A stretch of 63,537 nucleotides of DNA, counting the filler, from Folioceros fuciformis (lineage: Eukaryota): the NCBI GenBank assembly GCA_049999805.1. It is 9 parts of 9 records of this genome, joined end to end, with 100 filler letters (N's around TTAATTAATTAA, not from the genome) between each part and the next. Parts side by side here need not be neighbours in the genome. Positions count along the whole stretch, not along the records: positions 7,836 to 16,708 come from JBNGIO010001600.1; 8 more parts are not named here. One strand, 5' to 3'. Position numbers and translations under genes: made by a program. Shown piece after piece: positions 9,977 through 46,586 of the stretch (positions within the stretch are counted from its first letter, which is position 1; every line of letters starts with the position of its first letter). The notes beneath the pieces are model-generated. The model was not told where the DNA came from and made no database searches. It saw only the letters and a program-made list of their open reading frames with translations.

Positions 9977-10507
9977 TCTTATTCAATGTCTTGCAATTCT
10001 TCATATCAAGGTTGAAACCAAGAAACCTCATTGTGATACATCAAAATGTGCATATTGAATAGAAGTTTTAGAAAATTAAAATCATAATAATACTAAAATT
10101 CAACACTAGTATTCAGATCCCACGTAGGCAGTGGAGAAATGAAACCGGCTTCGCCCATACGGACAGGATTCAAGCATAAAAACATTAAATTACAGAACAG
10201 AAACCCTAAAATAATGTCCATTGGTTATTGAATAGAAACAGATATTTGCTTCTTGGAGTTACAGCAATATTAAATGAAATTTAAAACATAGCCTTTCGGG
10301 TGGTTGGATGTCGAGAGAGCCGTAGTTTGATGGCGAAGCGGGCGATCCATGTACAGAAATTCCTGCGTGTCCTCCATGGATGCCGCCATGCGGACCGATT
10401 AGAATGCAAGCAGATTGCAGCGATGGCAGAACACGGCGGAGAGCAGAAGGCGCTTTGAGCCGCAAACCTGGAATCGTATCTTGATATTGGTTGGAAGTTG
10501 AGTAGTC

Positions 10508-11965
10508 ATGTACAGGCAGACGAAGGAAGAGCTTAAGGTGTTGAGGGAAAGAGCGGATGCGGTAGAGAAAGAAGAACGCAGAAGGCTCATAGATGCTGCA
10601 AAGAAACGTGCTGCAGCTCAGAACGTTGATTATCCTACCTTTGCTGCCATGGTTAGATTTGGTTGTCTGAATGTTCCTGTTCTCCGTGCTGATATCATGC
10701 TTCACTATGGCTCGCCTCTTCGTCTAAATCCGCGGAGTGGGAATTCGTTGCCGGCACTCTTGTAGGTTTCAGTGGCTCACTTGAAGCCTATCCAGAGAAG
10801 GAGAGCGCATGAGGTGAAGCCAGCACGGAGCACATGGACACCTCGGGGATGGTCCTTGGACGAGGCCTTCTGCACGGACGAGGACAGGATGAGTCACAGT
10901 TTAGCTGATGATCCCTTGACTCTGAAAAGATGGCAAGCTTATGAGCGGGAGGCGACCTTGAAGCTCCTGCATACCATGGATAATGTCGCTGGTGATCCCA
11001 AGCCGCAGAAACACGTGCCTTTGACAAGTGATCAATTCATCAAGGAATGGAGAAAGCTTACGGGCAACATCAACGACAGGATGCGCCTGTTAAGAAAGAT
11101 GTCCCCTGATGACATCCCGCGCATTTTTAAGGTTGACCTTCCTTCCAGGATTCTGACAGAGATATTGGAGGCACTGCGGTGCTGGCAATTAAATGGAATG
11201 AGTTGTGCTCCTGTTGATCCAGAGGCGAGGAAAGGGGATGAATTCCAGGATGTGCACAATTCCAGCCTGAACGGCAGCGGGACGACATCCGGAAACATTC
11301 AAGCCGCTACAGACCTTACGAGCAAACAGCTTCCGCACGGAAGTCCATGTCCTCCTGATCTGGTCAAGACGTTGGCCAGCATCAGAATGCTCAGTGGCGG
11401 TTTGTCCTCGGAGGACCTGGCAAGTATGTACACGAGTGGTGAATCCGCGGGAGATCCTAAAGCTCTGCCAGCCTTTGTACATCTGCAAGGCCAGAACCCT
11501 CGAGGGAATAGTGACCTGGAGGCGTCAACAAGGGATGCTGCAGACGAGACTGCGAGCCAAATTGATTGGGTCACAAACGAACTAGCCAGCATTGCTGAAG
11601 GCCATCAGCACTCTGACTCGGAAGGCACACACCAAAGATTCTTACGCCTCATGAGAAATAGGAAGATGTTGTGGTTGCTGAGAATGCTGAACGCTCTCAC
11701 GAAATGTGGGAGATTCGACTTGGCTCTGAAGATGGGAAAGACGGGAAGGGCAACGGCTGCCTCAATTCTGGACCTCCTGGTGGCCGACATGTCCAGTGAC
11801 AGGGGTGAGGAAGGGAAAGAAAGCGACGAGGCTCCAAGTAAAAGAAGCTATTACGAATGTCGACCCAATTACGTGACGCCTGTAGTAGCTTTACCCATGG
11901 ACGATGCAGTCGTGGAATTGGATCTGCAGCAACTGAATTATCTACGGGCCGTTTACCAGCACTGA
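10508..11965 (+). CDS. CCDC103: CCDC103 / PR46b-like dynein attachment factor; exons 10508-10651 and 10766-11965
   Basis: Dynein_attach_N-like motif DAAKKRAAAQNVDYPTFAAM|VSVAHLKPI reconstituted across a GT-AG intron. RPAP3_C-like segments PLTSDQFIKEWRKL...IFKVDLPSRIL and LNALTKCGRFDLALKM. Confidence 0.82.
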
Positions 11966-12945
11966 TCTTCCTACCGGAGCTCTGTTTGAATGTACCTATG
12001 TACTCGCCATGCTGTGACCTGCAGAGACTACATTTTTCGGGATGGGTTTCGTCGGAAAACGTTTTACGATCGTCTTGTCTGGTCCGTATGACGTGACGCT
12101 CTCTTTCCAAACTTGTGAGGTATTTGCTCCAGGGATACAATGGTTCGTCTCGGGAGCTGCGTAGGCGAGAACGTGAGCACCACGCAGGGCGCTACACAGA
12201 GGCAGGCACACGATCGAAAGCGGTTGATGATCCCAATCCTTTGACAGCGACATTTTGGTGCGCTCATTTTCCTTTCAATCGAGTCCGAGGAATCCAGGCC
12301 TCACCAGGTGTTACAACTAAATGAACCTCAGACTTGAGGCATAGAAACTGTCGCAGCTGCGAAGGGTAAGATGGCCGTCAACCAAGGTTGGTATGGCCGA
12401 CAACTTCCCTCGAGCGTGCATGCGGAAGGGACATCTCGATCCGCGGCGGATGCAGCAGAGTTCGCAGCAGACTCAGGATTGAACACACAACACGTAGAGC
12501 CCAAATGAAACGTGACCTCAAAATGATGGACCTGTGGTAACTTGGCCTCTGGACCCAACCATCTGGGACGCCAAACACACAGACATACCACATGCATCAC
12601 GAGCGGAACTAAACATCCCAGACGACACCTGACTGAGATTGTTTGATTTGGTCAACTTTCACAGAACCATGCTTCACAACATGTACGACAATTAGGTGCT
12701 GCAAACCAATCACGCGGTTTACCCAAATTCCATCAGAACTTGAGGTCAGGCGAGTAACCAACCACAGACAAGCCCGGACAAAAGGTGGACTTCCCAACTA
12801 GTGAAAAAAGCAGCCTTCAAGAGTGAGATTGTTACCAGCAGTTATGAGATCAGCCTCAGAGGGAGGGAAAATCACCATTTTAATGATATGCCAGATCAAA
12901 CAGGCATAAGAGTTTGAGTTCTTAAACAATGCAACAACGAGGGCA

Positions 12946-13053
12946 CGGAGCATCAGTGATACCAGATTTCGTGTCAACAGGACCTACCTGAAAATTCAGA
13001 GATCAAGTGTGAAACATCCTCTGCCATCGGCCCTCATCACTATGCAAGTTCCG
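12946..13053 (-). ncRNA. Box C/D sno/scaRNA predicted to guide U2 snRNA 2'-O-methylation at plant C29 (human C28); snoR101-like
   Basis: Box C GTGATGA 13040-13034. 11-nt guide ACACTTGATCT (13010-13000) is the exact complement of U2 AGAUCAAGUGU and directly precedes D' CTGA (12999-12996). C'-like CTGTTGA; D box CTGA 12956-12953; terminal stem CGGA..GCA / TGC-TCCG. Resembles Arabidopsis snoR101 as recalled. Confidence 0.8.
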
Positions 13054-13698
13054 GAGTCATGGAAGATCAGACCACCAGGAAACCACTAATGCGGACCGTA
13101 AGACCCACCAGCGTAAACAGGATCAAGAAAGAAGAGATGCAGTGTCTACACGACAGTCAGCGAACAAGATTTGCAGAGAAATGAAAATGTTGTGACCAGA
13201 AACTTCCCCAACCTCAGGAGATGGCTTGTTCGACTAACCCAATTAGGTCCTTTGTAAGCTTACTTTCCAACATTACGGACATACCTTTGAGCTTCCACCA
13301 CAGCAGAATCCAGCAACAGTACATGGTGGAATACAGACTACTGCCCGAGATGCAGACCTAATGCGTGATACCCACCATAGCTTCCACAAACAATCTAAGA
13401 TAGGTTGGTTGCAGAAGACAATGTGAGGAACAATCTTATATACTCACTTTCTACTACCTGTCACCTCCCAGAAGAAGATCCAGGCCCAAGAGTCTCCCTC
13501 TGACTTACTCTTGAACCAGGTTGCTGGAAACCTGATCCTTAATTAGCATGTAGTACCGTTGTCCTCGTCAGATATGCATGGGCTCTGGAGCGATCCAGAA
13601 GGGAGAAGCCCCTGCAAAATCAAACCCTTCTGACAACATGCTAGGTGCAGAAGTGAGAAACTACAGGGCCTGATTGCTTACAGCTGTTCAAACCTCTC

Positions 13699-15519
13699 TC
13701 AGGTTCTGAATGAACCAGGAGCTCCAGGAGGAGAGGGGCCATAAGAATTGCTTGCAGTTTGTGCTGGTCGTGGCAAGGCCCCAGGAGGCTGGCTGTAGTT
13801 ATAGCTGTTCTGCACAGAAACGCCTGGAGGTGGACCCCTTGGTTGTTGAGGGGAGTTGTAATTGCCGCTTTGTCCTGACGGTGGTGCTGACTGTGGACCC
13901 GCTGGAGGTCCACCTGGAGGAGGTCCTCCAGGTGGCCCTGGTGCACCCTGGCGCTGCTGGCCATACGCACCAGAGGACGCAGGCGGGCCATAGTTGTAGC
14001 CATAACCAGTTGCTGCAGGTGGCCCAGGAGGCCTTTGTTGTGGCGGAGGCTGAGGCTGTGGCTGGGGCTGCTGCTGCTGCTGCTGCTGCTGTGGTGGCGG
14101 CTGAGGTTGGGGCATCTGCTGATATGCACCAGGAGGGCCAGCAGAGGGGCCTCCGGGGGGGCCTGCAGGTTGGCCAGCAACAAGGCCATTAACAGATGAA
14201 GGCGTAGAAGCAAGTGACCTTACCCCTGGAACACCTGGCGGGGATAAAGTTGGTGGCCTCCCAATACCATTCACCTGTGCCATGCCCCCACTCGTGGGTA
14301 GAGCAGCAACAGGTGGTCTGAACGTTGGTGGCGGCCCATACCCTCCTACACATGGACAACACACCCGTCAGTCATGCAACAACGACTAATTCCCACCGTA
14401 CCTGATGAGCCACACCACAAGACACGACACTACCTAGACGGCCAGTAGACAGCTCAGCACTCCACCATGAGTTAATATTCACATGTTCACCTGGATTTCC
14501 TGTTGGAGGAGGCAAAACTGGAGGTCGGATAGTAGGCAGAAGAGGTGGCTGAGAGGAACCTGGGGGGCCGCCTGGCACTGGTAGACTCGGGGGCGGTAAA
14601 ACCGGCACAGAATGCTTGTAGCCTAGTGTGTAATGCTGGTGAATTGCAGCACCTACTTGATGAAACACAGCAGCTGTCTGTCCCAAGTGCTCCTTCACTT
14701 TCTGGTCAATCAGACTTTGCGTCTGCTGCTCTTCAAACTGCTGGTAGTAAGCCCTAACATTCGCCTGCATAGATAGAAAGCACGCCACAAGACACAAGGG
14801 ATGCCACAGGCCGATCAGCAACAGTTACACAGTCAAAGGCGGTCGCGCTCTTCCTGCAAACCAGTGCTACTTACTGGACCAGTACCTTATGCTTGTACCC
14901 TGCATTATGCTGCTTCCGGACTGAGGGCTGCCACGACACACAACAGGAGCCATTGTCAATACCGGAAGGCAAGCAAGAAAGGAACAAGACCACCAAAGGG
15001 TCAGGCCTTCACCGAGTCATGCGTCAAATAGGTGTCGCAGTAGTCACAGTAATATCTGCACATACCCACAACACGAAAGATGAAGGAAAAATCATCCCAA
15101 TTCCATGCAACATTCAATCCCAGAACATCCCGCAAAATCACCACCAGATTCAGAAACCCATTCCAACTGCACTCCGACCGCCATCCCAGCCCTACAGACA
15201 GAGCAGCCAACAAAAGACACCAGCCCCGGAATCATCTATCCACCCATTCCCGACACTTTCCCCCAACCAAAACCCTAAAACCTCCTCCAGGGCCCGCTCC
15301 CGGAGAGCCCAACAAAGACGGCACAACAGCAGCCGTCATGGAGCGGGGGGAACAGGCGGACACGCAACATTAACGCCCCCGCATTAACACCACACCCACA
15401 AGGGTGCCGGCACGTCTGCAAGCTTCCTTCCGGCATTGCTTCCAAGACCCCCAAATCCCCCAACACCCAGCAAGCCTGTCACACTCCGTGAGCCGAGCAC
15501 TGCAGACATACCTAGGCAT
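13699..15519 (-). CDS. U1C: U1 small nuclear ribonucleoprotein C
   Basis: 8-nt first coding exon ATGCCTAG (15519-15512) splices to give MPRYYCDYCDTYLTHDS|PSVRKQHNAGYKHK|ANVRAYYQQFEEQQTQSLIDQ. Pro/Gly/Gln-rich tail with a CAG tract. Confidence 0.95.
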
Positions 15520-16808
15520 GGTGCGCGACAAGGGCGGCCCAGCAGTGAGATTCAGGTGGCAGGATCGCAGCTGGACGCAAATCTCCTCTGGGCGCCGTGT
15601 CGCTGCTACGGGAGGCGGGAGCCTGGCGCGAGAGGCGTGGCCCTAACCGGACCTTAACCCGCTCCTGGTTAGCTCACCCGCTCGGTCCCACTCTGCAGGA
15701 TGGGATGTCATAACGGTCGCTGGAATCCAGTCCCACGAAAGTTAAAAAGAGCTGGAATTTTAGCCATGCACATGGCACGATCTCACCACTGTTGCTCCTC
15801 TCCCTTGCTCGCCTGCCCGTCCATTTTCTACCACGTCAAACAACGATTTCAACCAACTCCTCCCCGCACCTTTGCCTTATATAGGCCAGCTGCCTCGCCG
15901 TTGGTGCTCTTGGGTCTACACCGCCTCCGAACTCCAGCTTGTAGACAGCTATGCCTAGGCCAAACAGGTTTGCTTTTGGGAGCCAAGAAGAGGCATTTTG
16001 TACGGGTAGCGGTAGCCTTTAGCAGGGAAAAGGGAGAAAAAAAAACCGTGGGGGTGGGTTTGTTTGCACTGCCTGCAGATCTGAGTTCTCTCCTGCAACA
16101 AACCCTACCAACTCCATGGAAGGGAGTTTGTGTGTATCAATCAATCAAGTTGGACAGAAAAAACCCCACCCAAAAAAAGAGGAAAATGAAAAGGTGAAGT
16201 AAAGTAGGTAGCAGAGGAGGATGAGAGGCGCGATGGAGGAGATGCGAGCCAGACCTGGGTGAACAGAACATGGAACACGCATCCTGACTATTGTACAAGA
16301 AGAAATGCTGGTGTGCGGGAGTCGCGGGAGCGTCGATAAATATCTAAACAAGGAATGCTGCATGTCTGTTTGACGGCAAGACAGGGGATGGGCGGGGACC
16401 TAACCGTGGTTAGGGTGGGACCCAGCGGGAGGGAGGCAGGACAGGGAGCGAGGGAGAGACAGGGCCAGGGAGCGAGCAAAACGCGCGAGCGGGGGAAGGC
16501 AGACACAGAGAAAGAGAGCAAGAGCAGGCACAAAGTTGCCTCTTCCTCACCCACACTCCCGGCACGCACCATCGTCACCCGCCAGCCACAGGCGGCACGC
16601 TACAGCCATCTCCGCCACCGCTGCACGGGAGGGGCCGGGGGAGCGTGTGGCAGGAGGGAAGGAGACGCAAGCGAGGAAAGGGAAGGAAGGAGGTAGGCAG
16701 GGCAAGGGNNNNNNNNNNNNNNNNNNNNNNNNNNNNNNNNNNNNNNNNNNNNTTAATTAATTAANNNNNNNNNNNNNNNNNNNNNNNNNNNNNNNNNNNN
16801 NNNNNNNN

Positions 16809-43583: not shown

Positions 43584-44633
43584 ACACGAAGTGCATGTTT
43601 GCTGACATGCAAGCCCAAGGATAAAATTTACGACGGTGCCAAATCTTGTCGCATCCTGGAGCATGTGCTGAAGCCGTGACCGGCTACTCCTATACTGCCG
43701 CGTACTCCCGGTGGTCCCCATCCCCACAGGTCAGGACCGAACCCTAGGTCGTAAAAAAGCTGACTTCCACTAACTCCCTGCTCGTTCTGTCCTCTTGGTC
43801 GGTCGAGATGTCTTGGGCTAAGCGTCGTAAAGGTTTCAGGCCCACCACGGCGATGAGACATATGCACAGAATTCGCGTCGGAAATGGTACATCTCTGAAT
43901 GGCCCCCCGCCAAGGGCACAGGAACAAGGAGATTCCAGTTCAGGCGTGACTTCCCGGCTGGACAGAAATATTGCTACTGGAGTCGCGGCAAGTCGTCTCA
44001 CGGCTTCATTGATTGTACTTTACCTCCCTGCCCTTGAGCTGTGTGTCATATTAATGGAAACTTGATGGCCACATAATCCGTGACCCGTGCACTGTAATAG
44101 CACTGCAGACAAAATCCGGAAGGCGAAGAAGGCTGGAGAGGCAGAAGGCACGAGACAGCCTGCAGTGGGGCCATATGAGACAACGCTTTCTTCCTGGCTA
44201 AAAGGAGCTCTGCCTGCCCTGCCCCCATTTCCTCCACAAACAAATGCATTGTGGGATCCGTGGCCACGGTACTTACCACGCTAACATTCCCTGACCTGCG
44301 GCAGCAACTCCTTTCCTCAAGCCCCAGGCCGAAGCACACAGAGACAGGTATGTATAGTGGTCTCGTCCCACCTCCGCCACCGTATTGGTCGCTCAGAATC
44401 ACGGGCTTTTCCTCCCATCCACTGTCCGTCTCTTTAACGACCAGGTGCGACAAGCAGTTCACACAAACACAGTCTGTGTTGCTTGGGTATACTTAGATCT
44501 TCAGGTGCATGCCCTTGAGTCTTCCAGCTGTTGGCGGAAGCCAATCCTGCTCCAACTCCGTGAGTTTGAACATCTCTCTCTGCCCTACTCGGGCCCTGCG
44601 ATCAATGGACTGTAAGGAGAAGGCTGCTGCTAT

Positions 44634-46586
44634 ATGTGCCGCATGACGGAGGCTGGAGGAAGGGCAGGCGACAAACAAACAGTGCAAGCGGCTATGGCAA
44701 CGAAGACGGAACAGCAGGCGATCCCGGCAGTGCAGCGAGGCGGCATCAAGGGGGCCCCGTCCCTCGCCATCCTCCCGGGCTCCACTATCCTGGCCATCAT
44801 CTCCCTGATCCAGTCCCCCTCCGACAGGAACCGAGTCTCCCAGGTGTGCCGCGCCTTTCGTGTCTGCGAGAGGCAGAGCCGCACCACCCTCTGCCTTCGA
44901 GCGATCCGCAGCGACATCTGGTTCCTCCCGCTTTGCTTCTCCAACGTCACAGACCTGGACCTGACCGCCATCATCCTGCTCCCAAGCCAGGCCCCGTTCC
45001 ACCTCCACACCGCCGAGCTCCACCGCCTCAGCTGCGCCTTCCCCAACCTCACCAGCCTCCGCGTCCCCGCCGCGAGCGACGCCTGCACCCGAGCCATAGC
45101 CTCCCAGTGGCCCGCTCTCCGCAAGCTCGCCTTCTCCCGCAACCCGCTCCCCCCGGCCCTGCTCCCCCGCCTCCGCACCGTGTTGCGTCACTTCCGTCGC
45201 CTCCAGGTCCTGTCCTCCGACAACCTCCTGATCCCGTCCCTTGCCCAGGGATTCCCTCACCGTGGCTGCCCCGCCCTACGCGCCCTCAACCTCTCTTCCT
45301 TCCTGCTCACCCTGGACCAGGAACTCGCCTTCCTGGCTCTCAAGTGCCCCAACCTCGAGAGCCTCTGCCTCACCCTCCACCCCGGCCGCCTCACGGGCGC
45401 CGGCATCCTGGCCCTGGCCCGCGCCTGCCCCACCCTCGCCACCCTTTCCGTCTGCATCGTCCCCGGCACGGACAACCATGCCGCCATCCTCTCCGCGCTC
45501 GCCGCGGCCTGCGGCGAGCTCCCCTCCCTCTCCCTCGACCTCTCCATGGACCAGGTTCCCGCGCTCGCGTCCGGCCCCAGGATGGAGCGCGTGCAGGACA
45601 TGGCCATCGGACTCCGCTCCCTCGTCGTCCTCTCCACCGACGCGGGCATGGCCGGGGTGGCCGCCTGCCCTAACCTCGCAGAGCTCACCTTCGGGTCGTG
45701 CGAGGGGCTCCGCGACGACCACCTGGTCGCCATAGCCCGCTCCTGCAAGTCCCTCTGCACTCTCCGCATCCTTCACTGCCTGGGGATCACGGACCGGGGC
45801 CTGGCGCGGATGTCTCGGCTCTCCACGTCCCTCACATCCCTCTCCCTGTGCTACCTCCGGCCCCGGGTGAGTGCCATCCTCGCCGCCGTCCGCCCTCTAA
45901 GCTCCACTGTGACAGCGCTCCGGGTGATGGGAGACAGCGGGGTGGACAGCCTCGCGGGGCTGACCTCCTGGCCGGTGCTCGCGCGACTGGAGATAACCAT
46001 GGCGAAGGAGCTCCCGGCCGTGGTTCTCCTGCAGGAACCGTGGCTCGTTGGGTGTCCCAAGCTGCAGCACCTGGCGCTCATGTTCCAAAACTGGTGCCCG
46101 TCGTCGCTGCACTTCCTGCGAAACTGTCCCTCGCTCACCTCGATTGCGCTCTCTTTCTCCGAGAGCCGGAGCCGGCAGACGACGCTGGAGCATTTGCGGG
46201 ACATCGCGCTGCTGCCCAGGCTGCTGGCGCTGTCCGTACATGTGTGTTCACAGGAGTGGCTGTCGAGGGAGGCGGGGAGGTGGCTGGCCAGGTGCCCGCA
46301 ACTGAAGGCGCTGGACATGTATTGGGCGCCCCGGGATGATGCGGCGTTCAAGGGGCCCAAGGCTGGCTTGCAACCTTTCCTGTTGGAGCTCTTATCTCTC
46401 AAGACGTTACGGCATGTCCAGATCCCGTGTGCGACCAGCGACGAGGACGATGTCAAGGCTTTCTACAAGAGCATCAGGTTGCACACCGTGAGCTCTTTGC
46501 TAAAATGCGCGTATAATTTGAAGCTGCAGGCGCCCAGAGGGAAGAGCTCCAAACTCACGCTCGTAAGTTCCAGAATATTGCGGTGA
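44634..46586 (+). CDS. Intronless F-box/LRR protein, divergent MAX2-like
   Basis: 650-aa GC-rich ORF. F-box LPGSTILAIISLI..SDRNRVSQVCRAF, then ERQSRTTLCLR..SDIWFLPLCFSNVTDLDL, RLSCAFPNLTSL and QWPALR, collinear with recalled MAX2 (ERSTRSHLTIR..RDLSLVPDCFRSISHLDL; RLKFCFP; QWPRIR). Cys-containing LRRs. Confidence 0.8.
   Translation: MCRMTEAGGRAGDKQTVQAAMATKTEQQAIPAVQRGGIKGAPSLAILPGSTILAIISLIQSPSDRNRVSQVCRAFRVCERQSRTTLCLRAIRSDIWFLPLCFSNVTDLDLTAIILLPSQAPFHLHTAELHRLSCAFPNLTSLRVPAASDACTRAIASQWPALRKLAFSRNPLPPALLPRLRTVLRHFRRLQVLSSDNLLIPSLAQGFPHRGCPALRALNLSSFLLTLDQELAFLALKCPNLESLCLTLHPGRLTGAGILALARACPTLATLSVCIVPGTDNHAAILSALAAACGELPSLSLDLSMDQVPALASGPRMERVQDMAIGLRSLVVLSTDAGMAGVAACPNLAELTFGSCEGLRDDHLVAIARSCKSLCTLRILHCLGITDRGLARMSRLSTSLTSLSLCYLRPRVSAILAAVRPLSSTVTALRVMGDSGVDSLAGLTSWPVLARLEITMAKELPAVVLLQEPWLVGCPKLQHLALMFQNWCPSSLHFLRNCPSLTSIALSFSESRSRQTTLEHLRDIALLPRLLALSVHVCSQEWLSREAGRWLARCPQLKALDMYWAPRDDAAFKGPKAGLQPFLLELLSLKTLRHVQIPCATSDEDDVKAFYKSIRLHTVSSLLKCAYNLKLQAPRGKSSKLTLVSSRILR

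Follow-up and report, generated by a model that had tools for sequence, protein, structure and literature searches.

A predicted U2 methylation guide RNA, snoR101, within the exonic 3'UTR of the U1-C gene of Folioceros fuciformis

Results

The U1-C gene and its 3'UTR

The locus lies on the minus strand of a 63,537-nucleotide stretch of Folioceros fuciformis DNA, hereafter the window, and consists of the U1-C gene with a box C/D RNA, snoR101, inside its 3'UTR (Table 1). The gene encodes an N-terminal U1 zinc finger (PF06220) followed by a Pro/Gly-rich tail. A query with U1-C exon sequence (14492-14764) matched 330 proteins, the best 120 of which nearly all carry PF06220 and are named U1-C where they are named. 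In the U1-C tree, the window protein belongs to a nine-row set of non-seed plants (99/96); a liverwort protein stands next to it, a position that has no starred support and allows no finer placement. One copy each of U1-C and snoR101 was found in the assembly.

Table 1 Features of the U1-C and snoR101 locus, in window coordinates.
Feature	Position	Strand	Basis
U1-C gene, 337 aa	13699..15519	-	GT..AG joints of contigs; start 15519, MPRYYC
U1-C coding exons	15519-15512, 15055-15013, 14927-14886, 14764-14491, 14345-13699	-	Contig splice joints
U1-C exonic 3'UTR, ~1.46 kb, snoRNA inside	12240..13698	-	Contigs without inner splice joint
Second conserved 3'UTR element GGUUAGUCGAACAA, opening with weak-donor-like G/GUUAGU	13226..13239	-	14/14 identical in L013/L029
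Perfect RUGAUGA (GTGATGA)	13034..13040	-	Upstream of orthologous box; absent in 18/18 complete homologues
75-nt probable mature core of the snoR101 orthologue, GCA...UGC	12950..13024	-	Rfam match; ends by homology
Terminal stem GCA / UGC	13024-13022 / 12952-12950	-	k-turn register with orthologous box C 13014-13020
Orthologous box C AGGAUGU	13014..13020	-	Layout common to complete homologues; AGGAUGG in the equivalent position of L013/L029
Antisense element to U2 nt 25-35, ACACTTGATCT	13000..13010	-	Pairing with own-genome U2
Box D' CUGA	12996..12999	-	Read from sequence
5'-splice-site mimic CAG/GUAGGU	12982..12990	-	Complements U1 nt 3-11, one G.U pair
Degenerate C'-like segment UGUUGA (putative)	12973..12979	-	Position and partial conservation in alignment
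Box D CUGA	12953..12956	-	Homologue alignment

The exon structure was derived from contigs of four runs (X1, X2, X3 and X6, of 22 listed) aligned to positions 10000-16500. These contigs represent assembled long RNA, showing neither strand nor ends and dropping rare isoforms, and the RNA nature of the four runs is itself a guess resting on their splice joints alone. The preliminary description had put the snoRNA past U1-C on the same strand, and the U1-C stop codon (13701-13699) is indeed found on the minus strand, 646 nt from position 13053. It had also expected an intronic location, which the contigs do not bear out: no splice joint was present within 12240-14344 in any of the four runs, and because all of them read through the snoRNA unspliced, it lies in the exonic 3'UTR of the main isoform and not in an intron. 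The contigs end in the 3'UTR at positions 12240 (X1), 12233 (X3), 12256 (X6) and 12421 (X2), and those of X3 and X6 show one segment, 12647-12718, that is replaced, not excised.

In X1 and X3, a single contig links the spliced coding exons with the snoRNA. The contigs of X2 and X6 are broken at a CAG repeat, yet span the coding sequence of the last exon, the snoRNA and the UTR. Since single spliced contigs join both genes, and since each gene was found once, the earlier proposal that one transcript carries U1-C together with the snoRNA is supported. The relatives represented by X3 and X6 differ from the window at 6.5-7.2% of positions over the proximal UTR and the last-exon coding sequence (12718-14344), at 14% in the distal UTR and at ~9.5% in the coding sequence of the neighbouring gene; when all substitutions are charged to the UTR, the proximal-distal contrast is weaker (p 0.08 for X3, 0.02 for X6). 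No further snoRNA scored above the Rfam cut-off in the UTR of the window or of two related loci described below (L013 and L029). In X1, an extra 94-nt intron is seen upstream of the start codon (window 15693-16022, minus strand), and a separate contig keeps part of U1-C intron 1 (15028-15494).

Identity and boxes of snoR101

Positions 12949-13015 of the minus strand match the Rfam family RF01155 (snoR101) with 46.1 bits (E 1.3e-5), above the gathering cut-off of 40, so that the covariance model confirms the identity first proposed from resemblance. This is the sole Rfam match above gathering score in the whole window. A search of the whole assembly with the family returned one place only, the same locus, scoring there 32.3 bits (below the cut-off of 40), and a DNA search with snoR101 likewise gave a single occurrence. 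The GTGATGA box, guide, D', D and terminal stem reported earlier were all found on the minus strand, the stem also in the minimum free energy (MFE) fold of 12946-13053; the part that did not stand is the choice of box C.

All 18 complete distinct homologues (see below) share one layout: GCA, one base, R(U/G)GAUG(U/G), 3-4 bases and the guide, with (C/U)UGA-UGC at the end. The window displays the same arrangement, GCA-G-AGGAUGU ... CUGA-UGC, in k-turn register and with the terminal stem, its homologue-type box C region occupying 13024-13014. As all 18 homologues set box C 3-4 nt before the guide, the orthologous box of the window is AGGAUGU (13020-13014), which is degenerate in having a G at a U position. 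It is not the "perfect box C" of the preliminary description, which has no counterpart in the homologues: in none of the 18 did the ~25 nt before the homologue box contain a perfect box C. The Rfam model begins downstream of box C and is therefore unable to decide between the two boxes. Among the internal boxes, D' is perfect, and the putative C' is a degenerate segment.

From this comparison we are fairly confident that AGGAUGU at 13020-13014 is the working box C, and the mature RNA is probably ~75 nt long, vs 70-73 nt in the 18 complete homologues. Because the orthologous box is the proximal one, the 5' boundary and the 90-105-nt size given earlier are probably wrong. An RNA of 95-108 nt that uses the upstream box (13040-13034) appears unlikely. 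This box fits the consensus perfectly, has GCA just before it and is enclosed by CGGA/UCCG, which closes the MFE fold, and its proximal competitor carries the G at a U position; however, it would form a 4-nt bulge and not the 3-nt bulge of a k-turn (PMC6770171), and it is absent from all 18 complete homologues, including two that share the AGGAUG box of the window. The upstream RUGAUGA is possibly an alternative box C and probably incidental. At window position 12991, one T of the run following D' is missing in all three relatives, which gives the spacer length of most homologues.

Pairing with U2

The guide (13010-13000) is an 11-nt match to nucleotides 25-35 of the genome's own U2, AGAUCAAGUGU, a target present in seven of the eight U2-like loci fetched from the genome. 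G13004, the fifth base before D', pairs with U2 C29, in agreement with the earlier assignment by the D+5 rule (C28 in human, C29 in plant numbering). An 11-nt U2 antisense element abuts only one of the 556 CTGA sites of the window (~0.05 expected). That the site is modified in plants, also part of the preliminary description, agrees with the detection of Arabidopsis U2 Cm29 by RiboMeth-seq and its assignment to SnoR101 (PMC8053127, Table 3). Drosophila U2 is methylated at the corresponding cytidine, C28, which is unmodified in vertebrates (PMC6770171). The window RNA is thus predicted from its pairing to be a U2 C29 methylation guide. No conserved D-box guide was found in the homologue alignment, as the sequence before box D is unconserved. 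On the basis of their targets, snoR101-104 were termed the first plant scaRNAs (PMC2875012).

Three divergent U2 copies were seen in the genome: C5512:14417-14611 (L007), C6328:359856-360050 (L008) and C668:1-193 (L009), which are variants or pseudogenes. In L007 and L009, the branch-recognition region reads GUGGUA, not GUAGUA, and the snoR101 guide pairs with these two copies over 13-14 nt. On each of two contigs of the genome (C7230 and C6268), U1 and U2 genes lie ~2.4 kb apart on the same strand, and a CCCATAT/C motif occupies the expected position of the plant USE upstream of five snRNA genes.

A U1-complementary site after box D'

Directly after D', each of the 20 distinct homologues has CAGGUAAGU, a perfect match in antisense to nucleotides 3-11 of the genome's own U1; the variant of the window, CAGGUAGGU (12990-12982), retains a G.U pair. 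Neither this site nor the second conserved 3'UTR element (13226-13239) figured in the preliminary description. The CAGG of this motif was imposed by the search pattern, leaving TAAGT alone free, and Rfam's own snoR101 consensus shows the motif independently, in upper case. By a simple pairing score, the window site reaches 21/22, above the five real donors of U1-C, which score 12-18. No contig is spliced at this donor-like site (12982-12990). Between the stop codon and box D there are four strong donor-like sites where 1.2 would be expected (threshold 17, p 0.03; threshold 18, p 0.10).

Homologues and their hosts

A pattern scan of metagenome contigs yielded 37 matches at 32 loci, 21 of them distinct. 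Of 19 loci checked with Rfam, 18 scored above the cut-off, all but L021; this locus has no box C, no Rfam match and prokaryote-like dense ORFs, and was removed as a chance match, leaving 31 plant loci with 20 distinct plant copies, 18 of them complete. Scanning prokaryote and viral collections by pattern gave no matches. The terms "grass-type" and "eudicot-type" used for the loci are inferences of the analysis and not the output of a tool.

At 13 loci, snoR101 lies within a gene for a SWAP splicing factor (DRY_EERY and Surp domains), and in six of these it is intronic, given the coding exons on both sides. At ten loci it lies near a PPR gene, either up- or downstream. The hosts of six of the 29 angiosperm-type loci carry no assignment. 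A tblastn search with the N-terminal 62 aa of U1-C located the zinc finger at none of the 32 loci, many of which are shorter than 2.5 kb (two matches at E 2.8 only). The linkage to U1-C that the preliminary description anticipated across plants is not borne out: it holds for 2 of 31 loci, both from one non-seed-type lineage, whereas the 29 angiosperm-type loci, some of which are short, all lack it.

These two loci, L013 and L029, are 84% alike. In both, the snoRNA starts ~225 nt after the stop codon of a Pro/Gly-rich exon, which opens behind an AG at a GY boundary in the same phase as the last exon of the window. The 110-aa ORF aligns end to end with residues 120-260 of a 260-aa U1-C protein (P0105) at 80.5 bits, compared with maxima of 51.2 for 200 shuffles and 40.8 for reversed U1-C decoys, a test run against U1-C proteins only. 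The ORF has no Pfam match, the contigs comprising the tail without the zinc-finger exons, and two unbiased searches with it (P0001) returned nothing or only itself.

A second element is common to the three 3'UTRs. BLAST of the last exon and UTR of the window against L013 and L029 recovered only the snoRNA and GGTTAGTCGAACAA, which lies upstream of the snoRNA in both. The 14-mer (L029 494-507, L013 521-534) is identical to the window at 14/14 positions, and a shared word of at least 14 nt arose in 4 of 5000 shuffles, which lends independent support to the U1-C identity suggested for L013 and L029. Taken at sequence level, the gene upstream of snoR101 at these loci is very probably the last exon of U1-C. 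The placement of snoR101 in U1-C is apparently old, recurring in a second, distant non-seed-type lineage.

In the window, 13169-13155 can pair with the 14-mer in a stem of 13-14 bp; L013 and L029 have no such partner, and the assembly contains no perfect complement elsewhere. Against U2, the 14-mer gave no more than a 9-pair match with two wobbles (nt 17-25), which lacks an adjoining D box. Near the angiosperm-type copies, the 14-mer is absent at up to 2 mismatches, except for distant matches in L016 and L017.

Tandem or nearby second copies of snoR101 were noticed at the eudicot-type loci L016, L018, L024, L025, L040 and L041, one of which is degenerate (L016 7055-7119, 45.8 bits). All eight SWAP-gene loci looked at (L010, L012, L020, L028, L031, L033, L034 and L037) have a pyrimidine tract and AAG directly 5' of the 5' stem of the snoRNA. 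Together with an internal CAG/GTAAGT, these outline a frame-shifting cassette exon of 37 nt that coincides with the 5' half of the snoRNA; no spliced form of it was seen in the SWAP-gene loci.

Discussion

Probable release of snoR101 from the U1-C transcript

We infer that the snoR101 guide, borne in the U1-C 3'UTR, is likely released from the U1-C transcript. At contig level, snoR101 is transcribed within the ~1.46-kb 3'UTR of the last exon; core proteins would assemble on the proximal C/D k-turn, the snoRNA being freed from a minority of U1-C transcripts. Two routes of release may be envisaged. The first is splicing-independent cutting followed by exonucleolytic trimming, as for plant polycistronic snoRNAs; it is plausible because in plants most snoRNAs are excised from precursors that carry several of them (PMC2875012, PMC5122169). 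In the second, a rare 3'UTR intron would be excised and the spliced mRNA removed by nonsense-mediated decay (NMD), since plant NMD is triggered by introns more than 50-55 nt past the stop, as well as by UTRs longer than 300-350 nt (PMC4417159). The freed snoRNP would then pair with U2 nt 25-35 and methylate C29. A single transcript would become a lasting mRNA or a snoRNA and never both, each release costing one U1-C message. That the shared transcript couples the biogenesis of two snRNPs, as the preliminary description proposed, is a hypothesis. In Arabidopsis, snoR101 was measured in the RNA fraction of up to 200 nt (PMC4065543).

Alternatively, the snoRNA could be driven by its own promoter within the U1-C 3'UTR, the mRNA merely overlapping it. 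Most plant snoRNAs are transcription units of their own (PMC11028025, PMC2875012), and several eudicot-type copies have telo-box or site-II motifs upstream. The UTR of the window contains two site-II-like motifs and one TATA-like motif (13584, 13488, 13442), which leave room for an internal promoter. However, motifs this short are common, two also occurring in the U1-C coding exon; neither a telo-box nor a USE-like motif was found between the U1-C stop and the snoRNA, the ~225 nt between stop and snoRNA in L029 contain none of these motifs, and the contigs are uniform. We regard an independent promoter as improbable.

A trapped, non-expressed copy in the UTR seems more improbable by far. Few snoRNAs are exonic, and some of those are artefacts of annotation (PMC11028025); moreover, the score of the window is in the lowest class of the scanned matches (46 vs 46-85 bits). 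Against this, the searches of the assembly turned up no other copy, its guide, D', D and stem are all intact, and a distant lineage shows the same context.

A possible U1-sensing switch

To the preferred reading, release from the U1-C transcript, a feedback module may be added, in which the strong donor-like site of the snoRNA and the weak donor-like 14-mer bind U1 snRNP. High U1 snRNP or U1-C activity would lead to 3'UTR splicing and NMD, or to altered 3'-end formation, and hence to less U1-C, with snoRNP assembly and U1 competing for the same RNA. The U1 site is kept in 20/20 distinct homologues, the single change in the window preserving a G.U pair, and is the strongest donor-like site of the U1-C gene. 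Donor-like sites exceed expectation between the stop and box D (4 vs 1.2), in a post hoc count that includes the snoRNA site itself. Plant NMD responds to 3'UTR introns from 50-55 nt past the stop (PMC4417159), a distance that both donor-like sites exceed by far, and both assignable hosts of snoR101 are splicing factors. Human U1C/U1-70K feedback operates through clustered cryptic donors and NMD (PMC3798272), and Arabidopsis U1 influences the choice of poly(A) site in 3'UTRs (PMC11489095).

Several observations weigh against such a module. Neither donor is used in any contig, and with CAGG part of the search pattern only the conservation of TAAGT counts freely, in 20 copies that represent perhaps five or six related groups. 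Copies in hosts other than U1-C keep the U1 motif just as well, and it may therefore serve the mature RNA: an internal stem can form between its AAGU and the ACUU after D', and UCAGGUA can, by eye, form 7 pairs with U2 nt 59-65. By analogy with known systems, a U1-sensing switch in the U1-C 3'UTR is plausible; we hold it to be doubtful for this locus. Its broader form, in which the U1-C 3'UTR of non-seed land plants is an ancient two-part switch made of a weak donor-like element and a snoRNA bearing a near-perfect U1 site, is slightly more doubtful still. If it were true, U1 snRNP and the C/D snoRNP would compete for the snoRNA site, and U1 levels would set both the survival of U1-C mRNA and the supply of a guide that methylates U2 beside its branch-recognition region. 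In grass-type plants, a comparable switch would have arisen anew in a SWAP intron, with the 5' half of the snoRNA resembling a 37-nt poison exon.

Relation to known systems

Human SNORD86, in NOP56, is an intronic, cis-acting snoRNA that senses the C/D core proteins and steers its host to a non-productive isoform. The snoRNA of the window contains a strong, conserved donor-like site, which no contig uses. In human U1C/U1-70K, clustered 5' splice sites lead to a non-productive isoform with no snoRNA involved (PMC3798272). In contrast to both, the donor-like site of the window lies inside the snoRNA and in a 3'UTR, and is a candidate read from sequence.

Arabidopsis snoR101 (RF01155), a common qPCR control, shares with the window RNA the guide, D', the internal CAGGUA(A/G)GU, the D box, the GCA/UGC stem and the U2 C29 target. 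The window differs in its AGGAUGU box C, the extra upstream perfect box and its exonic location in the U1-C 3'UTR, whereas the angiosperm-type copies fetched lie in the SWAP gene or near a PPR gene. Other plant sno/scaRNAs are annotated in 3'UTRs, as here: snoR164 in that of At2g37250 and snoR102-2 in that of At4g30993 (PMC2875012). snoR164, however, is an orphan H/ACA RNA and snoR102 has its own capped precursor, and the passages on them describe neither an snRNP-subunit host nor conservation of host position (PMC2875012). Drosophila scaRNA:MeU2-C28 is likewise a C/D guide for the equivalent U2 cytidine; it has a CAB box, and the likeness noted is one of target (PMC6770171).

A comparative screen of plant non-coding regions does not mention snoR101 or U1C in its main text (PMC12218528), and the top-ranked literature matches contained no published report of a U1-C linkage or a U1 site of snoR101. 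The locus thus combines a known guide RNA with an apparently ancient host arrangement that those matches do not describe. The snoRNA itself is ordinary. Its setting is unusual, as the sole copy found resides in a UTR whose spliced transcripts are abundant, and the same host has apparently been retained in two distant lineages although exonic snoRNAs are described as rare and often artefactual. The locus thereby offers a clean system in which to study how a snoRNA leaves the tail of an mRNA, and a small candidate for a connection, in plants, of U1 snRNP homeostasis with the modification of U2.

Other genes of the window

A convergent neighbour gene at 10330-11965 (plus strand) encodes an RPAP3_C domain. 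It has one GT..AG intron near 10651-10765, at low contig depth, and a homologue search with its long exon gave none. RPAP3 is part of the R2TP chaperone for snoRNP assembly, so its adjacency to the snoR101 locus may merit attention. Further along the window, at 44616-46586 (plus strand), an intronless ORF of 656 codons resembles, by eye, an F-box/leucine-rich-repeat protein.
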